From positions 32,001-96,000 of the IMG/VR virus record IMGVR_UViG_3300046501_000132: DNA of 64,000 bases; one strand, 5' to 3'. This DNA comes from a virus. The translations under genes were made by a program, and so were the position numbers. Below are positions 15,244-29,637 of this stretch, in pieces; position 1 is the first letter of the stretch, and each line of letters starts with the position of its first letter. The notes under the pieces are model-generated. The model was given only the letters and a program-made list of their open reading frames with translations, had not been told where the DNA came from and searched no databases.

Positions 15244-16698
15244 CTAGGTACGGGCGCGGTTGCGAACTTCGTCAAACGTTGGGATATATTCCCGTTCGCC
15301 ATCACAGTAGTACATCTTCCATCCATCCGTATCGCGGAAGACGCTGAACCCGTTGCCCGCCACAGTTTCAATCTGACCGTTCACCAATGCAGTATGGGCC
15401 AGGCCGGACAGCGACTTCTTACTGGAGTCAGTCTTGGGTTCCTTCAGGAGATTTACCCAACCCAGTTCCTCATCGTAGCGGGCAGTTGCCTTCATCGAGA
15501 ATGAGAACTCATCGCGGCCAGGACCATGAGTCATACCACCGCCCATACCAAAGGTCAGGTTATCCATCGAGTAATCAGCAGCCAGCAGATTGTCGATGAT
15601 CTGGGGAATACTGATGTGGTTGATACCATCGCCTTGGATAACCCGGAACGAGGGATGCAGAACCTTATACCCTGCGTCGTTCTTGGTCGAACCAACCTTC
15701 TCATCGATCAGACGGATGATTTCAATCGGCTTGGTAAGCGGGTTGCCGGAATCCGGGCGAGCAACCATCACGCCGCCAGAGGCAATAATACGGTCCCTCA
15801 GCTTACCACACAGATATTCACCGACGAAACGCTCATCGTCATAGGTGTCAATCACCACAGACTGGAGAGGAATACCGATACCTCGCTTGGTACGCGCCAC
15901 AGCTTCTTCCAGACGTTCAACCGACATTACAGCAGCGCCCCAGTCATCCTTATTGGCCGCATCTGAGTGTGAGCACATCACACTATGTTCCGTAGCATCA
16001 ACCGAACTAAACACCGGCTTGAACGTCCGGTAGATAGCCTTGATATAGGCGTTGGCTTGCAGGCAGTCAGAACCGGAGAACAGGAATCCGTGGGCGATTG
16101 CCGCAATGATTGCCGAATCGTTACCATCCGCGCCGCGATCACCGAAGTTGTGCAGCTTATACTCCAGCATGCTCATATCGGCCCCAGATTCTTGCATTGC
16201 CGCTTGAATCTTCTTGTAGCAGTAGCGGCTCATCGTGGCTACTGTGGTCATCTTCCACATGATACGCTGCACGACGGTTTCCACGTAGGACACAAGCCAG
16301 AAGAAACGTTCATCCGAGTTTACGATACCCAGGATCGGAGTATTGGGTTTCACCACCGTGCCTTCTTCCACGCCGAACACCTCCAGCGGTAGACGGCCAT
16401 CATACTCATTGGTGATGATTTCCCAGTCAGCTCGGTTGAACTCATAACCATATTGGTTGACTTCAACTTCAGCTTCATCGATCATTTCCTGAGTGATACG
16501 CACGTTTGCCAGAACAGCGGCAACCAGGGAAGCGCCAGCAGACACGATGCGATCGGTATACGACGAAGCCTTGCGCGGCACCACAGTTGAATAGATGAGC
16601 TTCGTGCCCTCGGGATATTCTGCGAAGTGGTGCAATTTATAGCTATCACAAGCGAGGATAAAGTTGCCCGGAACCAGATCATTAACGGATACAGTCAT
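15244..16698 (-). CDS. nadV: Nicotinamide phosphoribosyltransferase (ends in TAG)
   Basis: DSYKLHH, LHNFGDRG, ATEHSV, VIDTYD, RPDSG, IQGDGI, FGMGGG motifs. Confidence 0.95.
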   Translation of the reverse strand: MTVSVNDLVPGNFILACDSYKLHHFAEYPEGTKLIYSTVVPRKASSYTDRIVSAGASLVAAVLANVRITQEMIDEAEVEVNQYGYEFNRADWEIITNEYDGRLPLEVFGVEEGTVVKPNTPILGIVNSDERFFWLVSYVETVVQRIMWKMTTVATMSRYCYKKIQAAMQESGADMSMLEYKLHNFGDRGADGNDSAIIAAIAHGFLFSGSDCLQANAYIKAIYRTFKPVFSSVDATEHSVMCSHSDAANKDDWGAAVMSVERLEEAVARTKRGIGIPLQSVVIDTYDDERFVGEYLCGKLRDRIIASGGVMVARPDSGNPLTKPIEIIRLIDEKVGSTKNDAGYKVLHPSFRVIQGDGINHISIPQIIDNLLAADYSMDNLTFGMGGGMTHGPGRDEFSFSMKATARYDEELGWVNLLKEPKTDSSKKSLSGLAHTALVNGQIETVAGNGFSVFRDTDGWKMYYCDGEREYIPTFDEVRNRART

Positions 16699-16723
16699 TT
16701 GTTTCTCTTTTCTCTTTGGTAGA

Positions 16724-17779
16724 TTACTTCAACATTTCCTTGACCATAAAAACGTGGTCATCGTAACTTTCGGTCTGGATATCATCCAGGGCATTGATCT
16801 TGACCCAACGGTGACCAACCGCATCATCAGCCGGGTAGACCTCCGGACGCTCATCGAACATCGCGGTAACATCATACAACACTGCAAGAGTCGCACGCGG
16901 AATACCCAACGAACGGCTAGGGTCATCAAACAGCTTCTCTTTGACTTTACACTTCGCCAGCACGTCAGGCGGAATGTTCAGTCGGGCTTCTTCGTACAAC
17001 TCGCGCTCGGCGGCTTGAGCAAATGTCTCGTTTCGATTCTTGAACCCACCTGCCAGCGCCAGACAACCCTTACCAGGAGCCGCGCCGCGAACGATGAACA
17101 GAATCTCATCTTGCCAACGGACAATTGCGTCACCGCAATTGAAGGTCAGGGTTTCCGGGAAAGGATAGTCCTTGAACCGTTCAGTTTCCCGTTGGTAGAA
17201 GTGCCATTCCTTCTGGAGATTACTATCAATCAACTGTCGATCCATGAAGTCGGCAGTTTCCCGACTGATGAAACCTTGTTCGATGAACCGCAGAAGGAAA
17301 ACATCCGTCTGAAGACCTTCAAACCAAGCTTCCCGCAACCGAGTCGCGCAGAAGTCGGATTCATCGACTTCGGTCAGCGATTGCTTCCACTCCGGGAACA
17401 ACTTGTAGTAGAATGTAGATGCGTCCTTGTCGCAACCATACACCGTCACATCACTCGGATGATCAACATACGGGTGCACCAGTTGCTTCGCACGATCAGC
17501 CCAAGCATCGTTGTCATATGGCTCATCAATCAGCGGGCGATACACGATTCGGACATCACTCAAAATCCGACCATCGACATACGCGGATTGGACATTCGCT
17601 TCGATCATATCCACCGTTTCGTAATACGTGAACGGATTCTTGATTGAAACGCGACGATTGCTCGAACCGATCAGGATCATCACCCGGTCATTCTCACTCG
17701 CGGCCCGGATGATATGATCCATGTGGAACTTGTGAAACCCACGGAACCGTCCGATCACAACACCAACTTTACTTCCCAT
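16724..17779 (-). CDS. Bifunctional NMN adenylyltransferase/Nudix hydrolase (NadM-Nudix, NatV-like)
   Basis: IGRFRGFHKFH (HxGH-like), KNPFT; Nudix box GGFKNRNETFAQAAERELYEEA. Confidence 0.92.
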   Translation of the reverse strand: MGSKVGVVIGRFRGFHKFHMDHIIRAASENDRVMILIGSSNRRVSIKNPFTYYETVDMIEANVQSAYVDGRILSDVRIVYRPLIDEPYDNDAWADRAKQLVHPYVDHPSDVTVYGCDKDASTFYYKLFPEWKQSLTEVDESDFCATRLREAWFEGLQTDVFLLRFIEQGFISRETADFMDRQLIDSNLQKEWHFYQRETERFKDYPFPETLTFNCGDAIVRWQDEILFIVRGAAPGKGCLALAGGFKNRNETFAQAAERELYEEARLNIPPDVLAKCKVKEKLFDDPSRSLGIPRATLAVLYDVTAMFDERPEVYPADDAVGHRWVKINALDDIQTESYDDHVFMVKEMLK

Positions 17780-17993: not shown

Positions 17994-18022
17994 ATTATAC
18001 CCGCATTTACATCGTAGGTAAA
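17994..18022 (-). promoter_or_regulatory. Sigma70/T4-early-type promoter
   Basis: TTTACC-N17-TATAAT on minus strand. Confidence 0.75.
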
Positions 18023-18068: not shown

Positions 18069-18161
18069 TGGCGGTATGAGGTAGGATTTGAACCCACGCG
18101 GGAGCTTTCACTCCGTTGGTTTTGGAGACCAATGCCATCGACCGGACTAGGCGACTCACCC
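18069..18161 (-). tRNA. tRNA with CCA (Trp) anticodon but long variable arm
   Basis: TTGGT-CTCCAAA-ACCAA anticodon arm; GGAG/CTCC variable stem; T-loop TTCAAAT; G73, CCA end. Confidence 0.8.
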
Positions 18162-18170
18162 TTTGAAACT

Positions 18171-18245
18171 TGGTACTGCGTGCGGGAATTGAACCCGCCT
18201 TACCGGGTTGAAAACCCGATGTCCTAACCGATAGACGAACGCAGT
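18171..18245 (-). tRNA. tRNA-Glu(UUC)
   Basis: Cloverleaf, loop TT-TTC-AA, CCA. Confidence 0.92.
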
Positions 18246-18250
18246 ATATT

Positions 18251-18346
18251 TGGCCCACATCCTAGGATTCGAACCTAGATTTAACCCAATCGGAATCGAA
18301 CCGATTAGCCTCCGCGCGCTGTGAGGCTGCCGTCCAGCTGATGTGG
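18251..18346 (-). ncRNA. tRNA-like RNA with two T-loop hairpins and no canonical anticodon arm
   Basis: Acceptor CCACATC/GATGTGG-GCCA; AATCGG-TTCGATT-CCGATT and CTAGG-TTCGAAT-CCTAG. Confidence 0.75.
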
Positions 18347-18355
18347 TATGAAATC

Positions 18356-18433
18356 TGGTGGACCAGGTCGGATTCGAACCGACAACCCTCTGCTTGCAAA
18401 GCAGTTGCTCTACCCAATTGGAGCTACAAGCCC
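18356..18433 (-). tRNA. tRNA-Ala(UGC)
   Basis: Anticodon TGC, G3:U70, CCA. Confidence 0.93.
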
Positions 18434-18472
18434 ATATCCCGTTTATTTAACGTGTACCGGGGAACACAAACT

Positions 18473-18566
18473 TGGCGGAGACTGTGAGGCTTGAACTCAC
18501 ACACCCATTTCTGAGCCTTCGACTTTCAAGGTCGCTGCCGCTAGGCCACACTCGGCTAAAGTCTCC
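18473..18566 (-). tRNA. tRNA-Ser(UGA)
   Basis: Anticodon TGA, long variable arm, GCCA. Confidence 0.9.
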
Positions 18567-18571
18567 ATATT

Positions 18572-18674
18572 ATTTGAAGGGTGGGAGCATACCCCACTTG
18601 CGCCTCTTATCGATTTACAGGCTCTGACGCACTCAACGCTGACTAGCCGTCTGCTTTCGGCATTTCCTTCAAAT
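18572..18674 (-). ncRNA. Candidate structured RNA with acceptor/T-arm-like domain
   Basis: Closing stem ATTTGAAGG/CCTTCAAAT; GTGGG-7nt-CCCAC stacked on it; TGCGTC/GGCGCA stem. Confidence 0.5.
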
Positions 18675-18675
18675 T

Positions 18676-18751
18676 TGGCAGCCCCACTAGGGATCGAACC
18701 TAGAATCCAGGAGTCAAAGTCCTGTGTTATAACCAGTTTAACTATAGAGCA
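18676..18751 (-). tRNA. tRNA-Gln(UUG)
   Basis: CAGGA-CT-TTG-AC-TCCTG, GCCA. Confidence 0.92.
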
Positions 18752-18762
18752 ATTGATCTTAC

Positions 18763-19011
18763 TTACATCTTTGCGAGAATCTCGTATTCCCGAATAAGAA
18801 ACACGGTTTCGCCATCCACCACTGTCCGCTTGGCCTCAGCCCAATTCGGAACAATTACATCATCAATCTCGATGAGTCCGGCGCTTACTTCATCACCAAC
18901 AGCGATTACCTTACCATAAGTGGCAGTGTTAGTGCTCGTGATGATAAGAGTGGTACTTTGCGCTTCAACCTTTACTTCGGTAAAGGCAACATTATCAAAA
19001 AGTGGCTTCAT
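18763..19011 (-). CDS. GroES-like co-chaperonin
   Basis: MKPLFDNV, GKVIAVG, LIREYEILA motifs. Confidence 0.85.
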   Translation of the reverse strand: MKPLFDNVAFTEVKVEAQSTTLIITSTNTATYGKVIAVGDEVSAGLIEIDDVIVPNWAEAKRTVVDGETVFLIREYEILAKM

Positions 19012-19032
19012 TTATGTTCCATTTAAAATTCT

Positions 19033-19109
19033 TGGTGCCCCCGGAGAGATTTGAACTCCCGACCCTCCGCTTACAAGGCGGACGCTCTGGCCAGCTGAGC
19101 TACAAGGGC
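19033..19109 (-). tRNA. tRNA-Thr(UGU)
   Basis: TCCGC-CT-TGT-AA-GCGGA, CCA. Confidence 0.94.
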
Positions 19110-19164
19110 ATAGACCGATTTTTAACGTTGCTACGGTCGTCAACGCTTCCCATCCCTGAGAATT

Positions 19165-19249
19165 TGGTGCGAGCGGAGAGACTTGAACTCTCAATCCCGA
19201 AGGCCACGGCTTCTAAGACCGTTGCGTATGCCAATTCCGCCACGCTCGC
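19165..19249 (-). tRNA. tRNA-Leu(UAG)
   Basis: Anticodon TAG, variable arm, A73, CCA. Confidence 0.94.
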
Positions 19250-19256
19250 AAATATA

Positions 19257-19344
19257 GGAGGGAACCAGTAACTTCGGGGAACTGGCGCCGCGATCATCCC
19301 TCTCAGCGGTCTTCATTTGCAAGTCCAATGGTGGCCAGGCAAAT
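19257..19344 (-). ncRNA. Candidate pseudoknotted RNA 3' of the HD gene
   Basis: Crossing stems CCGC/GCGG and GAGGGA/TCCCTC with nested CCAGT/ACTGG; upstream ATTTGC/GCAAAT hairpin. Confidence 0.5.
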
Positions 19345-19347
19345 TCT

Positions 19348-19905
19348 TTACAACGGGAATTTCTTCCCAGCGCTAATCAACGCTTTCTTCTTGATCTTGA
19401 AGCTCGTACTTTCTTGTCCACCAAACATCTTACAGTTGGCGATTATCTCAGCCCAAGCAGTAAAATATAAGGATGGAGCTAGAGGATGTTTCCAAAGATT
19501 AACAATATCATCACCCTTCAGTGTATGGAACTCCATATCCTTTAAGATGAGTATTGCCGTCTCAAGATCGTCCGGCCAGATCGTAAAGTATTGAGCACAA
19601 GAATACTTAGCGTGATCAGGAAAACGTTGCTTACCATCTTCTCCCACGACTCTAGCTAGATGCTTACCGCAATCGTGGTAAATATGATACTGCTTCAAAT
19701 CCTTAATGTAATGTTTAGTCCGTTCATATATCTCTCCGATCTACGGAGGAAGATCAATGATTTGCTCACCACCCTCAAGCTGATTAATCAACTCTTGGTA
19801 CGCCTCGTGAACCGCGTTTCCGTGATCCAACATATTCATCGTTTCGAACTGGTAGCAATTACTCATCGCTTCTTTCAGTTCGTATAGAGATTTAGCTAGC
19901 TGCAT
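19348..19905 (-). CDS. HD-domain phosphohydrolase, 185 aa if the in-frame TAG at 19741-19743 is read through
   Basis: MQLAK...LDHGNAV...IDLPP-TAG-IGEIYERTKHYIKDLKQYHIYHDCGK...FPDHA; the two tracked ORFs share a frame. Confidence 0.8.
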
Positions 19906-20239
19906 TTGGACCCTTCCAGAGTTTATACTTACTGAACGTCTTACGTTGCTCAGCCGTGATCGGTTCAGTTGCGAAAGAAGTGAATCCATAATCCCAATCA
20001 GGCTCATAGAAGGCTTCACATCGAATCCCACGATCAATAGTACGTTTCATTGCTACCTCCAACTTTTCCTTATTAGGAATTTGGAGCATAATCAACGAGG
20101 AAGGTTCATTTGACTTTCTATCAAATGAATGACCGGCTTCTAGCGCGGCGTGACAAGCCTGAACGATCTGCTGTTCAATCGGCAAGTCGGTACGGATGAA
20201 AACATACACCCAAGTCTTTTCAGCGTTCTACGATTTCAT
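19892..20239 (-). CDS. PTH2-like peptidyl-tRNA hydrolase, 115 aa if the in-frame TAG at 20228-20230 is read through
   Basis: ATG AAA TCG TAG AAC GCT GAA AAG ACT TGG GTG TAT...; YVFIRTDL...VQACHAALE PTH2 motif. Confidence 0.78.
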
Positions 20240-20279
20240 TTCTATCTCACTTTGTTTAACTACATTAAAACCAAATATA

Positions 20280-20355
20280 TGGTGGCTCGTACCGGGATCG
20301 AACCGGTGACCAGCGGATTTAGAATCCACCGCTCTACCAACTGAGCTAACGAGCC
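20280..20355 (-). tRNA. Amber suppressor tRNA (anticodon CUA)
   Basis: Canonical 76-nt cloverleaf: GGCTCGT/ACGAGCC-A-CCA; GTGGA-TT-CTA-AA-TCCGC. Confidence 0.93.
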
Positions 20356-20365
20356 ATTATATATT

Positions 20366-20451
20366 TGGTACCTCGGGTGGGATTCGAACCCACACTCCCT
20401 TTCGGGAAGGGGATTTTGAATCCCCCGCGTCTACCGTTCCGCCACCAAGGC
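20366..20451 (-). tRNA. tRNA-Leu(CAA)
   Basis: GGGGA-TT-CAA-AA-TCCCC, variable arm, CCA. Confidence 0.94.
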
Positions 20452-20453
20452 AA

Positions 20454-20532
20454 TGGTCTGGGTGGTAGGATTTGAACCTACGACCTCCTAGTTCCAAACC
20501 AGGCCGTCTGACCAGACTGACATTACACCCAG
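20454..20532 (-). tRNA. tRNA-Pro(UGG)
   Basis: Anticodon TGG, C1-G72, CCA. Confidence 0.92.
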
Positions 20533-20541
20533 ATAAAACTT

Positions 20542-20621
20542 TGATCCTCTTTGTGGGCATCGAACCCACGTCTCCAGCGCATCAACGCCCCGGTATGCTA
20601 TCCATCTACACCATCAGAGGA
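20542..20621 (-). pseudogene. Degenerate tRNA/tRNA-like element (GAT triplet in an irregular anticodon arm)
   Basis: Acceptor TCCTCT/AGAGGA, T-arm GTGGG-TTCGATG-CCCAC, bulged anticodon arm, no CCA. Confidence 0.55.
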
Positions 20622-20629
20622 TTAAAACT

Positions 20630-20705
20630 TGGCCCCGCCCTCAGGTTACGATCCTGACCCTCAAGCTTTTCAAGCATGCGCTTCCACCAGGTTAGCTTGA
20701 GCGGG
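20630..20705 (-). tRNA. tRNA-Phe(GAA), atypical T-loop
   Basis: Loop TT-GAA-AA; T-loop ATCGTAA; G73. Confidence 0.8.
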
Positions 20706-20712
20706 ATAAAAC

Positions 20713-20785
20713 TGGATGCGGGCGCAGGTAACGATCCTGCTTCCATCAAGGCTTATGAGACCTGAGTCCACCACTGGAACCCGCA
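20713..20785 (-). tRNA. tRNA-Met-type (CAU), short D-arm, atypical T-loop
   Basis: Loop CT-CAT-AA; D-arm TCC-AGTGGT-GGA; T-loop ATCGTTA; CCA. Confidence 0.7.
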
Positions 20786-20793
20786 TTTGAAAC

Positions 20794-20869
20794 TGGTACA
20801 GACTGTAGGGATCGAACCTACGACAGCCATCTTGTAAGGATGGAACTCTACCAACTGAGCTAAGTCTGC
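20794..20869 (-). tRNA. tRNA-Val(UAC)
   Basis: CCATC-CT-TAC-AA-GATGG, CCA. Confidence 0.94.
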
Positions 20870-20878
20870 ATTAAAACT

Positions 20879-20955
20879 TGGTGGATGTACTAGGACTTGA
20901 ACCTAGAACCTTCCGGGTAAGAGCCGGATACTCTATCCAATTGAGTTACACATCC
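20879..20955 (-). tRNA. tRNA-Lys(CUU)
   Basis: TCCGG-CT-CTT-AC-CCGGA, CCA. Confidence 0.92.
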
Positions 20956-20964
20956 ATATTACGA

Positions 20965-21057
20965 TTGAGACACCCAGGCCCTTGTTGTAGTGGTAGGGGC
21001 TTAACCTACCGGCAATAGAGTCCAGACTTTGCCGCAATACATTCTCGGGCATCTCAA
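20965..21057 (-). ncRNA. Candidate structured RNA with long terminal stem and distal T-arm-like hairpin
   Basis: TTGAGATGCCCG/TGGGTGTCTCAA closing stem; CGGCAA/TTGCCG; GGTAGG-TTAAGCC-CCTACC. Confidence 0.55.
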
Positions 21058-21170
21058 AACCTTAAATTCCTGGTTGATCTTGCGACTAAACGCCACTCCC
21101 ATCTTGAACCGGACCAACCACCGGTACAGAGTGTCATCATATCCTAGTCGTCACTAGGACAAAGAATCTT

Positions 21171-21407
21171 GCCAATAATTTTGCTAACTGCCTCAGACCG
21201 CCACAACATCGGTCTTCATTATCCGGAAATTTTCGCGCGTCCGGTGGTGCAATTGCTTGCTTTGATGTATGCTACTTGGGGCCTACTTATCGTCTCTCCA
21301 GAGATACGCGGGAATCGAACCCGTCAATTTTCTCAAATCTCTGACTCTGCAGAAGTCTCGGAAAAGGATTTGGTACCTTGCTAGTAACAGTTAGCAAAAT
21401 TATTGGC
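21171..21407 (-). ncRNA. 237-nt element closed by a perfect 20-bp inverted repeat
   Basis: GCCAATAATTTTGCTAACTG (21171-21190) / CAGTTAGCAAAATTATTGGC (21388-21407); internal CGGG-TTCGATT-CCCG T-loop. Confidence 0.65.
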
Positions 21408-21482
21408 TCCGCATCTGAGTAACGATCTCAGCTAATCTCTGATTAACAGTCAGGTCCGTGCACCATGCTCGAATTCTGCGGA
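21404..21482 (-). tRNA. tRNA-Asn(GUU), atypical T-loop and D-arm
   Basis: Loop CT-GTT-AA; CTGAG-ATCGTTA-CTCAG; GCCA. Confidence 0.8.
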
Positions 21483-21500
21483 ACAGCACAAAACTACTTA

Positions 21501-21576
21501 GGGGTGACTAGTCGGACTTGAACCGACACTTACCTGACTCACAATCAGGTTCTCTACCGATTGAGATATAGCCACA
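21501..21576 (-). tRNA. tRNA-His(GUG), U at -1, 3' end encoded as CCT
   Basis: GTGGCTA/TAGTCAC, C73, loop TT-GTG-AG. Confidence 0.88.
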
Positions 21577-21599
21577 CCTAAGCACTCTTGTAGAATTAC

Positions 21600-21716
21600 T
21601 TAGGGAACATCTTTTTCTTGTACTTCGCGCCTCAACAGCCACTCCACCAACCCACGACTGATAAAGGCAAACAACAACCAAATACCTAGGAACCAACAAG
21701 CTTCAGTCTTTTCCAT
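21600..21716 (-). CDS. 38-aa putative membrane peptide
   Basis: MEKTEACWFLGIWLLFAFISRGLVEWLLRREVQEKDVP; start overlaps the end of the upstream ORF. Confidence 0.5.
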   Translation of the reverse strand: MEKTEACWFLGIWLLFAFISRGLVEWLLRREVQEKDVP

Positions 21717-21891
21717 TCATTCGGTCAAACCACTCTTTCGTACACTGAGGATATTGTCTCAGAAACTCAGCGTTAGATTGTTTATACAACTTCTCAACTA
21801 GCTTGCTATCTTTCTTCTCAACCTTCGCGTCATAGACAGCGGTGCCTTTGGCAAACTCGATGTCTCTGACCCAAACCGACCTACTAGCCAT
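21703..21891 (-). CDS. Hypothetical protein (62 aa)
   Basis: AAGGA RBS, ATG at 21891 immediately after tRNA-Lys. Confidence 0.6.
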   Translation of the reverse strand: MASRSVWVRDIEFAKGTAVYDAKVEKKDSKLVEKLYKQSNAEFLRQYPQCTKEWFDRMNGKD

Positions 21892-21903
21892 CTTTCTAAT
21901 CCT

Positions 21904-21980
21904 TGGTTGGAGCACTGGGATTTGAACCCAGAACTTTCCGGGTAAAAGCCGGATACTCTATCCAGTTGAGTTATACTCCA
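21904..21980 (-). tRNA. tRNA-Lys(UUU)
   Basis: TCCGG-CT-TTT-AC-CCGGA; paralogous to the Lys(CUU) copy. Confidence 0.92.
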
Positions 21981-21986
21981 TTTAAC

Positions 21987-22063
21987 TGGAGCGGGTGACA
22001 GGATTCGAACCTGCGACGAACTGCTTGGAAGGCAGACACTCTACCGAGCTGAGTTACACCCGC
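21987..22063 (-). tRNA. tRNA-Gly(UCC)
   Basis: Anticodon TCC, U73, CCA. Confidence 0.94.
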
Positions 22064-22070
22064 ATAAAAC

Positions 22071-22148
22071 TGGCGTCCCCACCGGGGGTCAAACCCGGTT
22101 CTCGTCCTTGAAAGGGACGGGTTCTAATCTACCGTAAACTACAGGGAC
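22071..22148 (-). tRNA. tRNA-Glu(UUC), second copy
   Basis: CGTCC-CT-TTC-AA-GGACG; T-loop TTTGACC; GCCA. Confidence 0.85.
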
Positions 22149-22157
22149 TTAAAACTT

Positions 22158-22234
22158 TGGCGACACGTAGGGGATTCGAACCCCTGACCTTCGGATAGAC
22201 AATCCACTGCTCTACCAGCCTGAGCTAACGTGCC
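22158..22234 (-). tRNA. tRNA-Asp(GUC)
   Basis: Anticodon GTC, GCCA. Confidence 0.92.
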
Positions 22235-22277
22235 GTATTTCTTTCTCGCTTCGTATTACTACTTAGTCGATGTAATA

Positions 22278-22306
22278 ATTATAACCCCGACTATGTGATA
22301 AGTAAA
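22278..22306 (-). promoter_or_regulatory. Sigma70/early-type promoter inside the tRNA cluster
   Basis: TTTACT-N17-TATAAT; upstream of the sub-cluster containing the suppressor module. Confidence 0.75.
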
Positions 22307-22313
22307 ATGAATC

Positions 22314-22388
22314 TGGAGTGGGTAACTGGATTCTAACCAGTGTAGCAAGGTTTTGCAGACCTGCACCTAAACACTCGGACACACCCAC
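22314..22388 (-). tRNA. tRNA-Cys(GCA)
   Basis: Loop CT-GCA-AA, U73; T-loop TTAGAAT. Confidence 0.85.
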
Positions 22389-22491
22389 ATAAATGATAGG
22401 CCGGTGGGGTGTCAGCAATAACCCTTACCCAAGGGTCCGTGTTTCCCATCCTCCGTTTACTTTCCTTACCTATCGGGACTTGCATGCAACT

Positions 22492-22579
22492 TGGCGGAAG
22501 ATGAAGGATTCGAACCTTCGTGCCGTTTCCAACGCGCTCCTTAGCAGGGAGGCCCAATAAGCCACTCTGGCAATCTTCC
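22492..22579 (-). tRNA. tRNA-Ser(GCU)
   Basis: Anticodon GCT, long variable arm, GCCA. Confidence 0.92.
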
Positions 22580-22580
22580 T

Positions 22581-22745
22581 TTACTCACTATGAAACTTAT
22601 CAACCATTCGATTGAATTTCTTCTTGAATGATCGCATCACACGCTTGCGGGATTTCCTTGGAGGACAACAGCATCGGCAATGCCAACCACCGCCTCCAAT
22701 ACAAGCGTGTACCATTTTCATAAAACAGCCTTTCTCTTTCATCAT
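22581..22745 (-). CDS. 54-aa basic, Cys-rich peptide
   Basis: GGAG RBS; MMKEKGCFMKMVHACIGGGGWHCRCCCPPRKSRKRVMRSFKKKFNRMVDKFHSE. Confidence 0.6.
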   Translation of the reverse strand: MMKEKGCFMKMVHACIGGGGWHCRCCCPPRKSRKRVMRSFKKKFNRMVDKFHSE

Positions 22746-22794
22746 GATCTCCATTTGGTGTTATACCTAATGTCGCATCATAATCTCCTAATCT

Positions 22795-22882
22795 TGGAGG
22801 AAAGTCAGGGATTCGAACCCTGGAACCCTTTCGGGTTTCTTGCTTTCTAGACAAGTGCAATCGACCGCTCTGCCAACCTTCC
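22795..22882 (-). tRNA. tRNA-Ser(AGA)
   Basis: CTTGT-CT-AGA-AA-GCAAG; long variable arm; CCA. Confidence 0.88.
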
Positions 22883-22932
22883 AAAACCCAAACGCATCCT
22901 CTACCGCGAAGAATTGCCCAGGTGTTATAATC

Positions 22933-23007
22933 TGGTACCGGGTAGTGGATTCGAACCACTGACCTAACGATTATCGATCGTTTGCACTACCGCTGTGCTA
23001 ACCCGGT
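22933..23007 (-). tRNA. tRNA-Ile(GAU), C33
   Basis: AACGA-TC-GAT-AA-TCGTT, CCA. Confidence 0.9.
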
Positions 23008-23009
23008 AT

Positions 23010-23125
23010 TGGCGAATACGTATGGAATTGAACCAATCTGTGGAACGTGATCACCTGGAAGGACAGACGCCTGTTTTGTCACTTCCCCACATTTCTCTAT
23101 GATCCTAGACCCTCGTCACATATTC
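23010..23125 (-). ncRNA. ~116-nt tRNA-like RNA with extended body
   Basis: Acceptor GAATATG/CGTATTC-GCCA; T-loop TTCAATT; nested stems TGTGG/CCACA, GGAAG/CTTCC, GACA/TGTC. Confidence 0.7.
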
Positions 23126-23132
23126 GTAAAAC

Positions 23133-23208
23133 TGGTAGTAATGGACGGATTCGAACCGCCGACCAATTCCGTATGAAGGAACTGCTCTACCAACTGAGCT
23201 ACATTACC
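23133..23208 (-). tRNA. tRNA-Met(CAU), elongator-type
   Basis: GTTCC-TT-CAT-AC-GGAAT, G1:U72 pair, CCA. Confidence 0.9.
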
Positions 23209-23332
23209 ATAGAAGTGACCCAAGTTTTAGGATAATAGACACCGCTTCTACCATCGTCGTTCTATCATTTTATCTCCATAACAACAATAGACACTTTGGC
23301 GATGGTCAAGGCCAGTCACTTATATTTACATC

Positions 23333-23421
23333 TGGTGGGGACGGTAGGACTCGAACCTACAGCGTTTCTTATGTCACAGATTTACAGTCTGCTGCCTTCG
23401 ACCAATTCGGCACACATCCCC
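23333..23421 (-). tRNA. tRNA-Tyr(GUA)
   Basis: GCAGA-CT-GTA-AA-TCTGT, long variable arm, CCA. Confidence 0.92.
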
Positions 23422-23432
23422 AATAAAACTAC

Positions 23433-23621
23433 TTAGTTGCCCTTCCGAGCAACTGGAGCCTTGTCATCCGGACCACGACGCTTCGCGGTGTACAGACGCT
23501 TGGAAGCATCCTTACCGTGAAGAGGCTTGGTCTTTGCCGGACCACTACCACCGCCCTTACGAACAGCGGAGATTTGCTTTGCTGCTGCATTCTTCTTTGC
23601 AGCCTTGCTTTGACGAGACAT
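23433..23621 (-). CDS. Small highly basic protein (possible nucleic-acid binder)
   Basis: AAGG RBS; Lys/Arg/Ala-rich 62 aa. Confidence 0.7.
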   Translation of the reverse strand: MSRQSKAAKKNAAAKQISAVRKGGGSGPAKTKPLHGKDASKRLYTAKRRGPDDKAPVARKGN

Positions 23622-23694
23622 CCTTTAAATCCTTTTCAATGATTTTAACCGTTAGGCTTGAGAAGGAATCTGTTCACAAATTCCTTCCTCAGCC

Positions 23695-24018
23695 GAATTC
23701 CCAGCACGCCAGCCCAGAGCACACATCGGGGTCAATTCAATGATCACCCACTACACTATTATCTGGGATTTGAAGAATCTCTAAGACTTGATGATTTGAG
23801 TTTTGAAAATCTTAAACTTTAAACATCTGATCTTTCAACCTTCAGCTTTAACCTTTGAGCTTTGATGTCTGTTGCGGGCATCCTAGCCCGCAATATTGTC
23901 TTTTCGATAAGAATTCGAAATACAATGCACCTTAGCATGGTTTTGGCTCTCGCAGTTTTTACGTCCTAGCGAGAAGTGGACGCCGAAAGTTTTGACGCGT
24001 TCGACGTACCAGGAATTC
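23695..24018 (-). ncRNA. ~325-nt structured RNA with heptamer repeat array
   Basis: 17-bp closing stem with G:U pairs (24002-24018/23695-23711), H-type pseudoknot, hairpins, no ORF. Confidence 0.7.
23781..23866 (-). repeat. Imperfect ~7-nt tandem array (about 11 units, consensus approx. YAAAGYT)
   Basis: CAAAGCT CAAAGGT TAAAGCT GAAGGTT GAAAGAT CAGATGTT TAAAGTT TAAGATTTT CAAAACT CAAATCAT CAAGTCT. Confidence 0.75.
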
Positions 24019-24036
24019 AGATTACTACAAAACTAC

Positions 24037-24672
24037 TTAGTCGGCAATTTCGATCTCAGTGCGAGCATTCGACTCCGACAGAACAAAATCAACTTCCGTC
24101 ACGAAGTCCGAGAACTTCGTTTGTAGTTCCTTGATCTTGTCTGCAATCTTAACCGGATCCAGCAACTTCGCTTCCGACTCACCCTTAACCGCCTGAGCGA
24201 TCAGGTTGTATTGATCTTCGTTGACCTTGCCCTTGTCATTACCATAGGCGGCCATCACACGCTTTTCGATGTCAGCTTCAACACGAGTGTTTTGCTGGTT
24301 CACCGCATTCGTCGCCTGGTTGTAATGAGCAACCAGAGTGTTGATGAAGTGCTGGGTATAACCAATCGAACCCTTACGCTCGATAGCCTCAGCAACAGTC
24401 ATTTCCGTACCGCTGATGTTCACCTTGGTGGAACCGTTCGATACGATGATGGCTCGCTTAATGGCATCACGCCGAGCAATGAGAGCCTCAACTTGTTGGA
24501 ACGACGCTGTGATTGCCGATTCGATCTGTTCCTTGGTCACCGCCGAGTTCAGCGGGACTTCCTTCTTGCCGCGTACTGCAGCGACATACGTACCACCCAC
24601 GATAGCGGAGTTGATACGTGAATCCAGGGTCTTCAGTTCGGCCAGGCCGCGCGTTACCGTAATCTTTGTCAT
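24037..24672 (-). CDS. Conserved coiled-coil protein (DIP1984/DUF6847-like from memory)
   Basis: GLAELKTLDSRI, MTVAEAIERK, LLDPVK, EVDFVLSESNARTEIEI. Confidence 0.7.
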   Translation of the reverse strand: MTKITVTRGLAELKTLDSRINSAIVGGTYVAAVRGKKEVPLNSAVTKEQIESAITASFQQVEALIARRDAIKRAIIVSNGSTKVNISGTEMTVAEAIERKGSIGYTQHFINTLVAHYNQATNAVNQQNTRVEADIEKRVMAAYGNDKGKVNEDQYNLIAQAVKGESEAKLLDPVKIADKIKELQTKFSDFVTEVDFVLSESNARTEIEIAD

Positions 24673-24711
24673 ACTTTCCTTTCTCTCTTTTCGTAAAATT
24701 ACTTAGTCTGA

Positions 24712-25272
24712 TTATTTCCGGCGAGAAAATCCGCCGAAAGAAGAACTTTTGGAAGCTGAAGGCTTGTCCAACGACAGCTTCTTCGGGGTGGATGGTGCGA
24801 TCGGTGAAGGTGCTGCCGGAATAACCTTGGAAGCCGATACCGGAACAGACTTCATTTGTGTCGGAGCCGTGGCAACAACTGGTGCAGGTTTCGGCGTTTC
24901 CTTCACATACTGCTTGACGATCACAGTCTTGTTGACCACCGTCGGACGGTTGTAATACCGATCCTGACCATAACGACGATCATCATAGTAGCGCGGTTGG
25001 TTGTTGTTACTTGCCGATCCCAGGGCATAACCCAGGGCCGCACCAGCCAGGGCGCCGGTCATCGTATCGCCAGAATGGCTCTGGGCCGGGGCTTGATTGA
25101 TGATCACCGGAGCGGGTGTAGTAGCCACAGGGGCGGAAGCGACCTGGGTCTGAGCCTGAGCAGCTTGAGCTGCAAACACACCCGGAGGAACAGGGTTGGA
25201 TACCTGTTTATCCTCACCACAACCGGCCAGGAAAGCCAGCGATACCGCCACTACAAGCAGAGTCTTCTTCAT
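24712..25272 (-). CDS. Lipoprotein with glycine-zipper and Pro-rich linkers
   Basis: Signal peptide + LAGC lipobox; GALAGAALGYALG. Confidence 0.8.
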   Translation of the reverse strand: MKKTLLVVAVSLAFLAGCGEDKQVSNPVPPGVFAAQAAQAQTQVASAPVATTPAPVIINQAPAQSHSGDTMTGALAGAALGYALGSASNNNQPRYYDDRRYGQDRYYNRPTVVNKTVIVKQYVKETPKPAPVVATAPTQMKSVPVSASKVIPAAPSPIAPSTPKKLSLDKPSASKSSSFGGFSRRK

Positions 25273-25298
25273 TTTCTTACAAAGGTTGAGTTTTGAAA

Positions 25299-25529
25299 TT
25301 ACTTCTTAGTGTGTTCCACGATACCGATCAACACCGCCATACGTCCTTTAATGCCATGCAGATTCTTGATCGAGCCGGATTCAAACAACACACCATTACT
25401 ATAGAACGAGGCATCAACCATCTTGATAACATCCGCTGCGACAGATTCAATCAAACTCAGGACATCCAGACTAACATTAGTCGGAATATCTTTGTTCACA
25501 TTCAACATCACTTCTCCAAAAGCTATCAT
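25299..25529 (-). CDS. Hypothetical protein
   Basis: Co-oriented ORF filling operon gap. Confidence 0.55.
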   Translation of the reverse strand: MIAFGEVMLNVNKDIPTNVSLDVLSLIESVAADVIKMVDASFYSNGVLFESGSIKNLHGIKGRMAVLIGIVEHTKK

Positions 25530-25547
25530 ACATCATACATCATACCA

Positions 25548-26078
25548 TTAATTCGGTAGATTGAACTGTGCTGAAGCAATCAGCTTATTTAGACACACCA
25601 AGGTCTTGGGTGTGATGTAATGATCTGACGCAAATTCTTCAATGTCGAAGTCGATCATCCGTTCACGATCATACGAACGCTTGATGCGCATAATATATGC
25701 CAAATTCGGATTACTATCCGAAATGAACTTAACTTCGGACTGACTCCAATTAGGAATCCACTTACCGTAGTTGTCCTGATAGTATTCATCAGGCAATTCC
25801 TTCACCTTCTGAACATACCCACGAGCTTGCTTCAGGATTTCGAAGACGTCATCGCCAATAATCACTCCCTCTTTGGAGGCATCCAAGACCAGAGTTTGAT
25901 CAGACTGAGACATCCAGAACCAGAACTTGAATTCAAGAGAAGTCTGGTCAACTCGACTGATACCAAAGCTGCGACGCATTTCAATCCGAGGATTTTGTCC
26001 CTTGGCGTAAATCTTTGCCGCTTCGAAGGCCATCGTTCCGATGTATTCTCCGACCGATACTTTGAAATCTTCAAGCAC
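25548..26078 (-). CDS. Hypothetical protein
   Basis: 176-aa ORF, GGAG RBS, co-oriented. Confidence 0.7.
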   Translation of the reverse strand: MLEDFKVSVGEYIGTMAFEAAKIYAKGQNPRIEMRRSFGISRVDQTSLEFKFWFWMSQSDQTLVLDASKEGVIIGDDVFEILKQARGYVQKVKELPDEYYQDNYGKWIPNWSQSEVKFISDSNPNLAYIMRIKRSYDRERMIDFDIEEFASDHYITPKTLVCLNKLIASAQFNLPN

Positions 26079-26082
26079 GCTA

Positions 26083-26562
26083 TTACTCCCAGTTGACGTC
26101 TTGGGTCGACGCCATTGCTTCGATCTTCATCACGACAAACTTCTTCTGCTTGTCGATAGCAGCCAGGCGCGCCGCTTCAGCCTTTGCGCTATCCTTAGTC
26201 GGATGACGTGCCGGAGCAGACGACATCGAGAACATGCCACCAATCTTGGTAATCGAACCAACGATCCAATCACCAGTCTGAACAACACCACCAACGCTTG
26301 TCTTCATAGGACTATTCACTCTCACAGCGGCTTTTGCCCGCTCAACATTTACAATTCGCTTCAGCTCATCAACCGTGATGAACTTCGTTTTGCCGTTGTT
26401 ATACAACCTATAACCGATTCGGTATTGATCGTCAATATTGTGTTTCCGAATCTTACCAGCACGGGAGTAGTGATATGAAATCACCTCAATATCATCCAAA
26501 CTCTTACCAACGCTGATCTCATACTGAGGAAACCCGTAAATCGGGTACTTATCACTATCCAT
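26083..26562 (-). CDS. Hypothetical protein
   Basis: Start moved to ATG 26562 (AAGGA RBS) to avoid overlap with tRNA-Arg. Confidence 0.7.
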   Translation of the reverse strand: MDSDKYPIYGFPQYEISVGKSLDDIEVISYHYSRAGKIRKHNIDDQYRIGYRLYNNGKTKFITVDELKRIVNVERAKAAVRVNSPMKTSVGGVVQTGDWIVGSITKIGGMFSMSSAPARHPTKDSAKAEAARLAAIDKQKKFVVMKIEAMASTQDVNWE

Positions 26563-26574
26563 CAAATAATCCTT

Positions 26575-26650
26575 TGGCGCAACGAGAGGGATTCGAACCC
26601 CCGACAAACGGGGTAGAAGCCCGCTGCTCTATCCACTGAGCTACCGTCGC
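26575..26650 (-). tRNA. tRNA-Arg(UCU)
   Basis: GCGGG-CT-TCT-AC-CCCGT, GCCA. Confidence 0.92.
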
Positions 26651-26726: not shown

Positions 26727-26900
26727 TTATAATGTCGCTTCGAAATACAGATGATCAAAGTCCATCACTTGACCACAATCATCACGCACGGAAACAGTTG
26801 TATCGTCGGTGTGGATGATGATATATTGCCGACCACGAGTCAAATGCGGAGGATGATTAACTACGGGACTGACTTTGGTGCAACCTTCGAAAATCGCCAT
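26727..26900 (-). CDS. 57-aa hypothetical protein
   Basis: TGATG overlap with macro-domain gene; MAIFEGCTKV...YFEATL. Confidence 0.55.
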   Translation of the reverse strand: MAIFEGCTKVSPVVNHPPHLTRGRQYIIIHTDDTTVSVRDDCGQVMDFDHLYFEATL

Positions 26901-27364
26901 CACTCATACTCCACTAACGTTATTTGTATGCTTGGGCTAGCACTATTAATAATTCCTGCAATAGTTGCCCAATCGCCACGAGCAAGACCTGCACCGATTT
27001 TAGGAATTCCCAAAATGAAAGGTTCAGGACTAAATGTTCTAACATCTTCATTAATCTTTACGAAAGCACTTTTAATGGAATCGTAAAGACGCTTTCGATC
27101 TTCACGCCCAGGTCTGAATTGAGTGTAGGCGTTATAGATCCAACCGAAGTCGGTTTCACAAACTGAAAATTCTCCAAGCTTTCCGGCTTCGCCATAGGGA
27201 GACTTTTCATCCTCCCGAAGCGCCTCAGGAAACTCTTGTGCAATCGACGCTGCAACTCCAGCGCCCATCGTATGGAAGCAGTTACACCCGTGGGCAATCC
27301 CATGGAACTGTCCCTGCTTGAACATCGTGATCAGGTTTCCCTTGGTCGTCTTAACTATCGGCAT
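26900..27364 (-). CDS. Macro-domain (ADP-ribose processing) protein, T4 Tk.4-like
   Basis: HGCNCFHTMGAGVA, NAYTQF, IPKIGAGLARGDW. Confidence 0.9.
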   Translation of the reverse strand: MPIVKTTKGNLITMFKQGQFHGIAHGCNCFHTMGAGVAASIAQEFPEALREDEKSPYGEAGKLGEFSVCETDFGWIYNAYTQFRPGREDRKRLYDSIKSAFVKINEDVRTFSPEPFILGIPKIGAGLARGDWATIAGIINSASPSIQITLVEYE

Positions 27365-27415
27365 CTAAATCTCCATTACAGCTATTATACCGAAATACAT
27401 AGCTAATAGGAATGA

Positions 27416-28174
27416 TTAACAGAAGTCGAACACTGAAGATGTGGTGGACTTCTTCGCTTCATTCTTCGCTCGGAATTCTTTGATCTTATCGGCCAGCAAC
27501 TGCATATAATCTCTACGGTCACGCACGAATACCTGTGCATCCTTCGCATTCTCAACCGAGATAATGATTACCAACTTCTCTGCCTTCAGACCATATAGTT
27601 CCTCCAGCATAATGGAGTAACAGGTTGCCTGTAGGAAATAGTTTGTGATCCACTTCGCCAGCTTCTCTTTAGTCGCTGTCTTGAAGTCAATGATTGCCAG
27701 TTCGCCTTTATACTTCGCAATGCAGTCAACTCGCCCGGCTAACTGCATCACCTTAGACCACAACGGGAGTTCCAACGCGTGAATATCATCCACGTGCATT
27801 CTTAGAACCCGTTCGATCTGTCGGTACATAAATTTGTAATCACCAGCGTGTGCATCATCTGGGCGATTCTTCAATAGATATTCAAGTGCCAAGTGGACAC
27901 CAGTACCGCGATTCGCGCAACGCTCCGACTCAGCATTTGCCTTATCAACCCCACCCAACTTCTCAGCCCAACGTTCAAACCAATCGCTGTCTTCCTCGAA
28001 TGAGCCCAAGAAAGTGGTGACGGACGGATACCTACTTCCGTCCGGGGTTACATACAACCGTCCCGTTGGACTGTCGATGTTGTAACAATCGTACTCAGTC
28101 AAAAAACACTGCCGAAATGTCTTATCGGCAGTGTTTTTGCGTTGCTTTAGTATATCAAACGACGGCATTACCAC
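27416..28174 (-). CDS. PD-(D/E)XK exonuclease
   Basis: YPSVTT, RGTGVH, AGRVDCIA, IIDFKT, YFLQATCY. Confidence 0.88.
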   Translation of the reverse strand: MVMPSFDILKQRKNTADKTFRQCFLTEYDCYNIDSPTGRLYVTPDGSRYPSVTTFLGSFEEDSDWFERWAEKLGGVDKANAESERCANRGTGVHLALEYLLKNRPDDAHAGDYKFMYRQIERVLRMHVDDIHALELPLWSKVMQLAGRVDCIAKYKGELAIIDFKTATKEKLAKWITNYFLQATCYSIMLEELYGLKAEKLVIIISVENAKDAQVFVRDRRDYMQLLADKIKEFRAKNEAKKSTTSSVFDFC

Positions 28175-28718
28175 GTCGCTTTTGGATGATCTCCATCACT
28201 TCATCGAAGTGGAATGGCATCATATCCTTTTGCGGACGAGCATCAATTCCCACATCAACACGATTCTGGATAGTACGACACTCGTGGTGATCGTCCCCAT
28301 GAATGTGTCCATGCAGGTGAATCGTACCGCGATGCATTTGATCCCAACTTTCGATAGGATAGTGCATCATTACAATCCGGTGATCTCCTACCTTGATAGT
28401 TCCGTAGGTCTTGATCGAAGCAAAGTAGTAGGTCAGGCGACCTTCCATGATGTTTCGACCATCGTGATTGCCAGCCTTGAGGTGAATATCACCATTCAAC
28501 CGAGTTAGAACATTCTCAGTCTGAGTCGTGGTTCCGAAACTAAAATCGCCAAGGTGGTGAACCGTATCACCTGGCTTAATACGACTGTTCCAGTTTTCGA
28601 TCATCAGTTCCGTCATTTCAACCTCATCCTTCCCTTGGCGGGTGGTTGGGCAGAACTTCAGAATGTTCTTATGATAGAAGTGGGTATCACTAGTAAACCA
28701 AATATTAGGTTGACTCAT
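28155..28718 (-). CDS. Calcineurin-like metallophosphoesterase
   Basis: SDTHFYH, LGDF, GNHD, HYP, HGHIH. Confidence 0.9.
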   Translation of the reverse strand: MSQPNIWFTSDTHFYHKNILKFCPTTRQGKDEVEMTELMIENWNSRIKPGDTVHHLGDFSFGTTTQTENVLTRLNGDIHLKAGNHDGRNIMEGRLTYYFASIKTYGTIKVGDHRIVMMHYPIESWDQMHRGTIHLHGHIHGDDHHECRTIQNRVDVGIDARPQKDMMPFHFDEVMEIIQKRRGNAVV

Positions 28719-29637
28719 TCTCTTTTTCCAAATATGTTTTGATCTCACTGATCCTAGTCTGTTCATCCATCAGCAGGAACTTGTCCTTGATGGTGTATAG
28801 ATAATCAATCAGTGGATAGTATTCTTCTTCAAACTGTTGACGTGCAGTGTAGCGGTTGTCCGACAACACACCCTTCAATAGTTTAGTCTCCCCGGCACGA
28901 GCCAGGAACTTCGTCACCTTGTAATACGGCGACTTGATCTTGAGAGCCTTACCATCGCCATAGACCATATATCCTTCATGAGTGCACATCTGAGCCATCT
29001 TGACGATGTCAGAGAAACGCATATTATAGGTGGATTCTGGGCGCTTACAACCAAATACATTAGCTGCATGATCCAATACTGACTCAAAAGCTTCAGCGAT
29101 AAACCCATCTTCATGATAAGTGCATGCCCCGATCAACCAAGCCCCTAGTTCTTCCTCGATGATGTGAGGGTCGGTTTCATCACAGATCTCAAAGATGAAA
29201 GTACTGTTGGGGAAAGACTTGATCCAATTCTCATACTGAGCAACGTGCTTCTCGATCAGATCAACAAAATCGCTATCCAGACTTCCAGTGGTCGAATAGA
29301 TAATCTTGTCCGAGATTTCAGGACGATAGGTTGCGCAGCCCATGAAGCCATTGATCTTCCTAACAGCCAAACACAGCTCATCCCGGTCAATGATGGTTCC
29401 GTTCTCCATGTAATTAAACACCTTGGTGAAGGGCTTCACCACCACATTATAGTCCGCATCAACCACCAGACCGCGAGCATACTTGATCATATCATGCTCG
29501 TTCCACAACGCATCATAGAATACGTTTGCAGAATACTTCAGCACATACAACCCAGGCCAGCGTACCGACTCACGCCGTTTCACCAGCTTGGGATTTTCTT
29601 CAACGAACTTCTTCAGTTCAGTGGGGTTGATATGCAC
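28705..29637 (-). CDS. RNA ligase (Rnl1-like)
   Basis: KPFTKVFN, KINGFMG (motif I), FEI, EGYMV, LKIKSPYY. Confidence 0.85.
   Translation of the reverse strand: MHINPTELKKFVEENPKLVKRRESVRWPGLYVLKYSANVFYDALWNEHDMIKYARGLVVDADYNVVVKPFTKVFNYMENGTIIDRDELCLAVRKINGFMGCATYRPEISDKIIYSTTGSLDSDFVDLIEKHVAQYENWIKSFPNSTFIFEICDETDPHIIEEELGAWLIGACTYHEDGFIAEAFESVLDHAANVFGCKRPESTYNMRFSDIVKMAQMCTHEGYMVYGDGKALKIKSPYYKVTKFLARAGETKLLKGVLSDNRYTARQQFEEEYYPLIDYLYTIKDKFLLMDEQTRISEIKTYLEKENEST

Follow-up and report, generated by a model that had tools for sequence, protein, structure and literature searches.

Recoded phages of the crAss-like and Lak groups, in which TAG is read as Gln (code 15), carry their own amber-reading tRNA, tRNA(CUA), in standard-code hosts and contain TAG codons that need it, and it has also been proposed that this suppressor dependence regulates the timing of gene translation (bioRxiv 10.1101/2021.08.26.457843, PMC9523058). 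The recoding survey of Borges et al. makes no mention of hydrolase or HD-domain genes (bioRxiv 10.1101/2021.08.26.457843). Orphan tRNA(CUA) genes are also found in standard-code jumbo phages, e.g. XacN1 (PMC5852040), RsoM2USA (PMC8504454), GAP32, CBB and Serratia BF. In XacN1, which has two of them, the authors read through 18 annotated amber stops and could not identify targets (PMC5852040), and the RsoM2USA paper names no target for its suppressor tRNA (PMC8504454). A related logic has been built into synthetic amber-suppressor switches such as the suppressor-tRNA feedforward loop, where a gene with an early UAG is on only with the suppressor, in a tight and non-linear manner (PMC7969014). 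Here we describe a virus locus in which a tRNA(CUA) gene lies next to two overlapping genes interrupted by TAG, one for a protein of the HD superfamily and one for a protein with the fold of peptidyl-tRNA hydrolase 2 (Pth2). The locus is part of a stretch of 64,000 nucleotides (nt), referred to as the window, which covers positions 32,001 to 96,000 of the IMG/VR virus record IMGVR_UViG_3300046501_000132 (genome of 170,684 bp); all coordinates below are those of the window unless a relative is named. We conclude with considerable confidence that codon 55 of the HD gene, a TAG, does not break the gene but serves as a programmed site of read-through, where the phage's own tRNA(CUA) decodes it. 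Full-text literature on suppressor tRNAs and peptidyl-tRNA hydrolases in phages yielded no description of such a module.

The HD gene (19348..19905, minus strand, phrog_14850) comprises 185 codons from an ATG at 19905-19903 to a TAA at 19350-19348, and its frame holds a single internal stop, the TAG of codon 55 (19741..19743, minus strand), in the context CCT CCG TAG A (Pro-Pro-UAG-A). An earlier reading of the letters alone (the original prediction) had noted that two listed open reading frames (ORFs), 19741-20037 and 19348-19698, share one frame, that 14 sense codons separate them, and that the amber codon divides the residues of an HD motif. All of this is found in the sequence: the TTG at 19698, from which the ORF list starts the C-terminal part, follows the TAG after 14 sense codons, the first His (H28, in LDHGNAV) is encoded before the TAG, and HDCGK (H77-D78) and FPDHA (H98) are encoded after it, as are D123 and H127. 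Read from the minus strand, the joined product has the expected 185 amino acids (aa), and it aligns in one piece with more than 100 single-ORF homologues. In a profile search against the phage family phrog_14850, residues 9-183 matched positions 85-262 of the 270-position profile with an E-value of 2.9e-59, and the two halves covered complementary parts of that profile (positions 85-123 and 149-262). By tblastn, 29 phage records aligned to residues 1-183 or 9-183 in one piece each, and a search of 5.8 billion proteins gave 116 clusters of homologues, mostly uninterrupted, about 185 aa long and up to 66% identical. The column occupied by the TAG varies within the family, with Q, L, E, I or other residues in the homologues and Q or L in the closest uninterrupted ones, so that any inserted residue should be tolerated.

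Alignments of 37 and 102 sequences share the invariant residues H28, D78, G80, K81, H98, D123, H127, E153, N157, K170 and K172, and H77 is at least 90% conserved among the 102; the H...HD...D metal-ligand motif of the HD superfamily is thereby kept in the family. An AlphaFold2 model built from the family alignment is a single compact helical domain (pLDDT 97, pTM 0.92) with the all-helical HD fold, in which residue 55 comes after a loop, at the start of the helix formed by residues 54-66 (pLDDT 98). With one compact domain predicted across the TAG and invariant residues on both sides of it, neither fragment would amount to a whole domain, as had been anticipated. The original prediction would have been refuted if the joined protein did not align end-to-end with single-ORF homologues, which it does; it is supported, and what had been noticed is a real, conserved and probably suppressor-dependent gene.

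A likeness to the HD domain of CCA-adding enzymes had also been proposed, and this was borne out by both sequence and structure comparisons. When the HD family was used in a sequence-profile search of the PDB, the sole matches below an E-value of 0.01 were the entries 3wfo-3wfs (E 0.002), through the HDxGKP...F.H stretch, and the same entries came top in a Foldseek search with the HD model (TM-score by model 0.6). VIA-align superposed 157 of the 185 residues on chain residues 250-445 of this CC-adding enzyme with a Z-score of 14.3 and an rmsd of 3.0, followed by PhnZ (Z 10.0), PgpH, the C-terminal domains of PPX/GppA and YfbR at Z 8-10, a scale on which helical folds reach middling values easily. 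The HD protein comes without a nucleotidyltransferase head, and a search of the whole 170-kb genome gave no PF01743 (PolyA_pol) match. Membership of the class II tRNA nucleotidyltransferases was considered and rejected, as the protein aligns to their C-terminal part only and has no Pol-beta head. Judged from motif and model, it is a stand-alone divergent HD domain, closest to the tRNA-binding body and tail of CC/CCA-adding enzymes. The HD domain of the Escherichia coli CCA-adding enzyme reportedly (Yakunin et al., in 2004) has 2',3'-cyclic phosphodiesterase and phosphatase activities. For the HD protein, tRNA end healing or breakdown of signalling nucleotides, both suggested by the original prediction, would be a possibility.

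The second gene with a TAG, encoding the Pth2-fold (peptidyl-tRNA-hydrolase-2-like) protein, occupies 19892..20239 on the minus strand, between the tRNA(CUA) gene and the HD gene, and its 3' end overlaps the HD start by 14 nt. It begins at an ATG (20239-20237) and reads ATG AAA TCG TAG AAC, i.e. with a TAG as codon 4 (20228..20230, minus strand) followed by A, after which 111 sense codons lead to a TAA at 19894-19892. This leader TAG is kept in relatives, where the residues behind it are conserved (MKS-TAG-NAEKTW, MKS-TAG-IAEKTW, MKL-TAG-IDEHVW and MT-TAG-ISEHTY), and an opening of the form M-x(0-7)-TAG followed by a purine is found in 40 of 58 distinct Pth2-like genes of related loci. The window protein scores 22.9 bits against the Pfam PTH2 family, whose cut-off is 23, and a profile of 41 homologues matched archaeal Pth2 (2zv3) in the PDB at an E-value of 1.4e-4. 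Its model (pLDDT 92.7) has the alpha/beta fold of Pth2, and the top 15 Foldseek matches were all Pth2/Bit1 or close structural-genomics relatives, with TM-scores by model of 0.56-0.81.

The amber suppressor tRNA, predicted by ARAGORN at 20280..20355 on the minus strand, has the anticodon CUA, 76 nt, A73, an encoded CCA, an A31-U39 pair and a tRNA-Lys-like body. It is a canonical tRNA that lies 375 nt upstream of the HD start on the same strand, and its Rfam tRNA score of 69.2 bits is the best between positions 18000 and 21000. Its closest E. coli match is tRNA-Lys, at 79-80% across all 76 nt. In E. coli tRNA-Lys, changing the A31-U39 pair to C31-G39 lowers lysine acceptance 100-fold (PMC1483225). 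On the grounds of the tRNA-Lys-like body, U35, A73 and A31-U39, charging by the host lysyl-tRNA synthetase (LysRS) is most likely, and the alternative is Gln. An array of 25 tRNA genes (18073..26650, all on the minus strand; ARAGORN) surrounds the suppressor tRNA and the two genes with TAG codons, and no tRNAs beyond this array were found in the whole genome. A consensus scan of positions 19000-20700 gave no terminator-like site on the minus strand, and the sole minus-strand promoter-like match lay inside the HD gene (19712-19684). A near-identity DNA search of a phage collection matched only tRNA genes.

In the HD gene of related contigs, the string LPP-TAG-(I/V/M) occurs at the same column as in the window; these are L016 (ENA), L017 (NCBI assembly), and L018, L024-26 and L030 (JGI/IMG-VR), each of which has a tRNA(CUA) 0.5-1.4 kb upstream. 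Against L016, the N-terminal half of the HD gene has a Ka of 0.064 with Ks saturated, and the C-terminal half a Ka of 0.151 with a Ks of about 1.7. None of the four comparisons made (L016, L017, L024 and L030) shows a change of the TAG codon, Ks being saturated for the pairs other than L016. At the level of sequence, the locus thus presents an in-frame stop conserved under selection together with a cognate tRNA on the same element, which is the pattern expected of programmed read-through by a dedicated suppressor tRNA.

A scan for close relatives with the single HD protein as query returned no loci, but the family alignment used as a profile did find them: it brought up 154 IMG/VR loci, and the 80 that were retained gave, together with GenBank phages, 91 loci with 80 distinct HD sequences, related loci for which counts are descriptive and do not stand for independent trials. 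A TAG is present early in the HD gene or inside it in 55 of the 80 distinct loci. In 38 it takes the leader form M-x(1-12)-TAG right before the conserved N-terminus, and in 17 it is internal, at column 55 (the window type) or column 47 (the GAP32 type, seen in GAP32, CBB, Serratia BF, Yersinia fHe-Yen9, XbC2 and Kaldavass), with single cases at columns 4, 20 and 113. Most family members have the TAG at codons 2-8, and a leader with TGA was seen in 2 of the 80 distinct sequences. On a FastTree phylogeny of the HD family, internal TAGs have at least four origins, counting well-supported branches only. Neighbouring ORFs from the same loci (n = 900) served as controls; in these, a TAG is the upstream bounding stop in 20%, has a nearby preceding ATG in 3.1%, and terminates the ORF in 12.6%.

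The HD TAG is followed by a purine in all but one of the 55 cases (54 of 55), compared with 43% of the TAG terminators among the controls. A purine, above all A, after UAG is said to be the classic context of efficient amber suppression (Bossi; Miller and Albertini, 1983), and release is reportedly slowed by Pro-Pro before the stop (Hayes, Bose and Sauer, in 2002). Both UAGs of the window are in suppression-favouring contexts, with an A after each and Pro-Pro before that of the HD gene. In 46 of the 80 loci, a tRNA(CUA) gene is located no more than 3.6 kb away (median 1.1 kb), and all 55 such tRNAs are on the strand of the HD gene. Of the 426 tRNAs predicted in related loci, more have the anticodon CUA than any other, and in 11 loci tRNA(CUA) genes are the sole tRNAs. 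Two tRNA(CUA) genes were seen near the module in L027, L028, L029, L031, L033, L053, L058, L071, L077, L092, L094 and L102, in several of which they are the only tRNAs within 6 kb, and an alignment shows that the bodies of the suppressor tRNAs differ widely across phage lineages.

A Pth2-like domain was detected in 66 of the 91 loci. Its strand is that of the HD gene in every case, and in most it is encoded immediately upstream of the HD gene or fused to it. Fusions exist in both orders, with Pth2 N-terminal in pT24 (L012), L095 and L103, and C-terminal in XacN1 (L015), Xoo-sp13, RAS14, L086, L091, L096/98 and L099, which argues for a joint function of the two proteins. Among cultured phages, the module is carried by GAP32, CBB, Serratia BF, Yersinia fHe-Yen9, XacN1, RsoM2USA, ME3 and Arash. 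An opal form also exists: the Pth2-like gene at L065:5396-5980 opens with M-E-S-TGA-V, and about 200 nt upstream lies a tRNA(UCA), the only UCA tRNA among the 426. The HD genes of L072 and L074 (just upstream of position 6001) start with M-L-TGA-V and M-S-TGA-V, with no suppressor tRNA within 6 kb. One Pth2-like gene (L071:5442-5777) has a second in-frame TAG about 37 codons into the gene, in addition to its leader TAG (M-T-TAG-V).

Read-through of codon 55 need not mean that only the full-length protein matters. A leaky UAG could give two functional products, a 54-residue peptide and the full-length HD protein, in a ratio set by the suppressor tRNA; for such dual output, RNA phage Qbeta with its coat-extension protein serves as the model. 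The strong purifying selection on the N-terminal 54 codons (the Ka of 0.064 against L016) would agree with this, as would the internal TAGs of two clades (columns about 47 and 55), which come behind the first long helix, and termination products must exist where release factor 1 (RF1) competes at the TAG in a standard-code host. A functional short product cannot, however, be the general reason for the stop, which in most members lies at codons 2-8 and would release a di- to heptapeptide, and the single domain of the model incorporates the N-terminal piece as an integral element. We therefore consider dual output unlikely.

The TAG might otherwise be a true stop, with the C-terminal part restarted (e.g. 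at the TTG at 19698), the two polypeptides assembling afterwards and the tRNA(CUA) being incidental. A TTG is indeed available 14 codons past the TAG in the ORF list, and deposited genomes list separate coding sequences for the two parts (CBB_407/408, GAP32_398/399 and g411/g412). Yet the 14 codons between TAG and TTG are conserved as protein, forming the start of the confidently modelled helix 54-66 (pLDDT 98), and the annotated restart points vary among close relatives. In L001, L004, L005, L006, L008 and L009 (CBB, GAP32, fHe-Yen9-03, XbC2, Kaldavass and Serratia BF), the HD gene is split into two or three 'hypothetical proteins' with differing restarts; the GAP32 annotation also places an overlapping 'putative membrane protein' across the HD gap. 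A split protein is moreover a poor fit with the purine after the TAG, with the same-strand linkage of tRNA(CUA), and with 27 of the 38 leader forms, which have no ATG, GTG or TTG from the TAG to the conserved region, and we judge it to be quite improbable.

It was also considered that TAG is a sense codon throughout the genome or in blocks of it, as in recoded crAss-like and Lak phages, of which a phage tRNA(CUA) is a hallmark (bioRxiv 10.1101/2021.08.26.457843). A crude gene call under translation table 11 covers 91% of the genome with long ORFs, and among the 131 ORFs of at least 150 aa it ends 77 with TAA, 45 with TGA and 9 with TAG. Since TAG still terminates other genes, as it does in 12.6% of the 900 neighbouring ORFs of related loci, the phage uses the standard code. 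A screen of codon-usage log-odds, applied genome-wide to all in-frame TAGs flanked by 40 or more codons on either side, ranked the HD TAG first with weak runners-up, and a screen for leaders of the form ATG-x(0-6)-stop before coding-like frames found the Pth2-like gene as the only case of a TAG leader followed by a purine. Besides those of the Pth2-like and HD genes, the 170-kb genome yielded no in-frame TAG that was convincing. By these sequence screens, the two adjacent genes appear to be the only convincing targets of the tRNA(CUA), and a wider change of code is very improbable. A dead gene or an error is an extremely remote explanation: TAG does arise by one base change from either CAG or TTG, codons for the Q and L seen in the closest uninterrupted homologues, but a recent nonsense mutation or assembly mistake is excluded, as the TAG is kept at the same column in independent ENA, NCBI and JGI/IMG-VR assemblies despite saturation of synonymous sites, purifying selection acts on both halves and all invariant residues are intact.

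Several observations weigh against programmed read-through, or against what we make of it. Since the loci are related, there are fewer independent events than the raw counts suggest. No tRNA(CUA) was present within 6 kb in 34 of the 80 loci, where it may sit elsewhere in the genome; the tRNAs of XacN1, for example, are located in terminal repeats (PMC5852040). Some clades (Arash-like, ME3 and L029) have an uninterrupted HD gene, which indicates that the stop in the HD gene is itself dispensable; in these the leader TAG is kept on the Pth2-like gene, whose end lies 11-30 nt ahead of the HD gene. In the window, a GTG seven codons past the TAG of the Pth2-like gene is a possible suppressor-independent start. 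As for the protein, no Pfam HD family matched the joined sequence or its halves at an E-value of 1 or below, all hits to other families being at chance level, and it is on motif and fold, and for want of such a match, that we file it as a divergent member of the superfamily and not in a curated HD family; HD-type enzyme chemistry is accordingly suggested by its motif and modelled fold.

Programmed read-through by the phage tRNA would, given the sequence features, conservation, tRNA linkage and folds described above, work as follows. The array would be transcribed and the tRNA(CUA), with its encoded CCA, processed from it and charged by a host synthetase, most likely LysRS. Ribosomes would start the Pth2-like gene at AUG-AAA-UCG and would have to read the UAG of codon 4. 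As the HD start lies 14 nt before the stop of the Pth2-like gene, translation of the two genes is probably coupled, and a second UAG would then be read at codon 55. Such coupling through the 14-nt overlap, if real, would make HD output steeply dependent on suppressor activity. Without tRNA(CUA), translation would yield a tripeptide from the first gene and, from the second, only the N-terminal 54 residues, without the HD pair, H98, D123 and H127. The amounts of both enzymes would in this way track the activity of the suppressor tRNA.

From the folds of the two proteins, we propose chemistry at tRNA 3' ends, where the Pth2-like protein would hydrolyse ester bonds and the HD protein would take off a phosphate or cyclic phosphate. 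The gating might serve one of three purposes. It could be a checkpoint that allows the enzymes to be made only once phage tRNAs have been produced and charged, before the host tRNA pool is altered; it could provide negative feedback on the suppressor tRNA or the phage tRNA pool; or it could have peptidyl-tRNA and damaged ends cleared in proportion to how much read-through occurs. On balance we favour the view that the module is a natural tRNA-operated translational lock in large standard-code phages, for which the suppressor tRNA is the key and the stops of the Pth2-like and HD genes are the only conserved locks, and which, as part of the same proposal, moves within the genes, comes in amber and opal versions, is tuned by context and couples the making of tRNA-end enzymes to the working state of the phage tRNA supply.

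The genes near the tRNA array fit a translation and anti-defence neighbourhood. The flanks (15244-17779 and 26900-29637, both minus strand) encode NAMPT and an NMNAT-NUDIX protein (NAD salvage), a Macro domain, a PD-(D/E)XK nuclease and an Rnl1-type RNA ligase. No PNK3P (PF08645) phosphatase domain was detected genome-wide, which leaves the Rnl1-like ligase (28705-29637) without a detected phosphatase partner of the T4 Pnkp type; that the HD protein might be its end-healing partner is a guess. Within the array, a tRNA at 18073-18161 (minus strand) with the anticodon CCA (Trp) has 89 nt and a long variable arm, and scores 40 bits in Rfam compared with 54-69 for most neighbours, and a small ORF at 18763-19011 (minus strand) is GroES/Cpn10-like (Pfam E 3e-6; PHROG co-chaperonin GroES). 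Elsewhere, a gp5-type baseplate-hub lysozyme was seen in the 170-kb phage, and a Gp23-like capsid gene in one relative.

Taken together, these results propose a conserved target for the suppressor tRNAs that have repeatedly been reported without one in cultured standard-code jumbo phages, and they present stop-codon read-through as a form of gene-specific control and not as a change of the genetic code. They also bring to light an undescribed enzyme pair, Pth2-fold and CCA-enzyme-like HD proteins, that probably acts on tRNA 3' ends during infection. For annotation, the consequence is that many deposited genomes have these genes split or given wrong starts by gene callers.

The closest known kind of system is stop-codon recoding by phage suppressor tRNAs, of which the locus is a gene-specific variant in a standard-code genome. 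Unlike in the recoded phages, TAG remains a working stop here and only two small adjacent genes are locked; these are genes for tRNA-end enzymes and not structural or lysis genes, the stop is often at codons 2-8, and the tRNA of the window is Lys-like and not Gln-like. The orphan tRNA(CUA) genes of standard-code jumbo phages are of the same kind as that of the window, and these phages have homologues of the HD gene. In XacN1, ORF364 (L015:3490-4350) is an HD-Pth2-like fusion right after an unannotated leader, M-K-TAG, and with a leader of only two unannotated codons this stop escaped the authors' test of annotated amber codons; the RsoM2USA homologue of the HD gene starts with M-K-S-TAG. With the HD region of class II tRNA nucleotidyltransferases (3WFO-3WFS), the HD protein shares the HDxGKP...H signature and a structural score about 4 Z units above other HD families. 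The entry 3WFR is a CC-adding tRNA nucleotidyltransferase whose tail domain touches the tRNA elbow, and this tail is included in the part matched by the HD protein (PMC4810234). It differs from these enzymes in having neither head nor neck, in its length of 185 aa, and in being paired with a Pth2-fold protein. Compared with synthetic amber-suppressor switches, finally, the phage module is natural, conserved across many lineages and tied to one enzyme pair.

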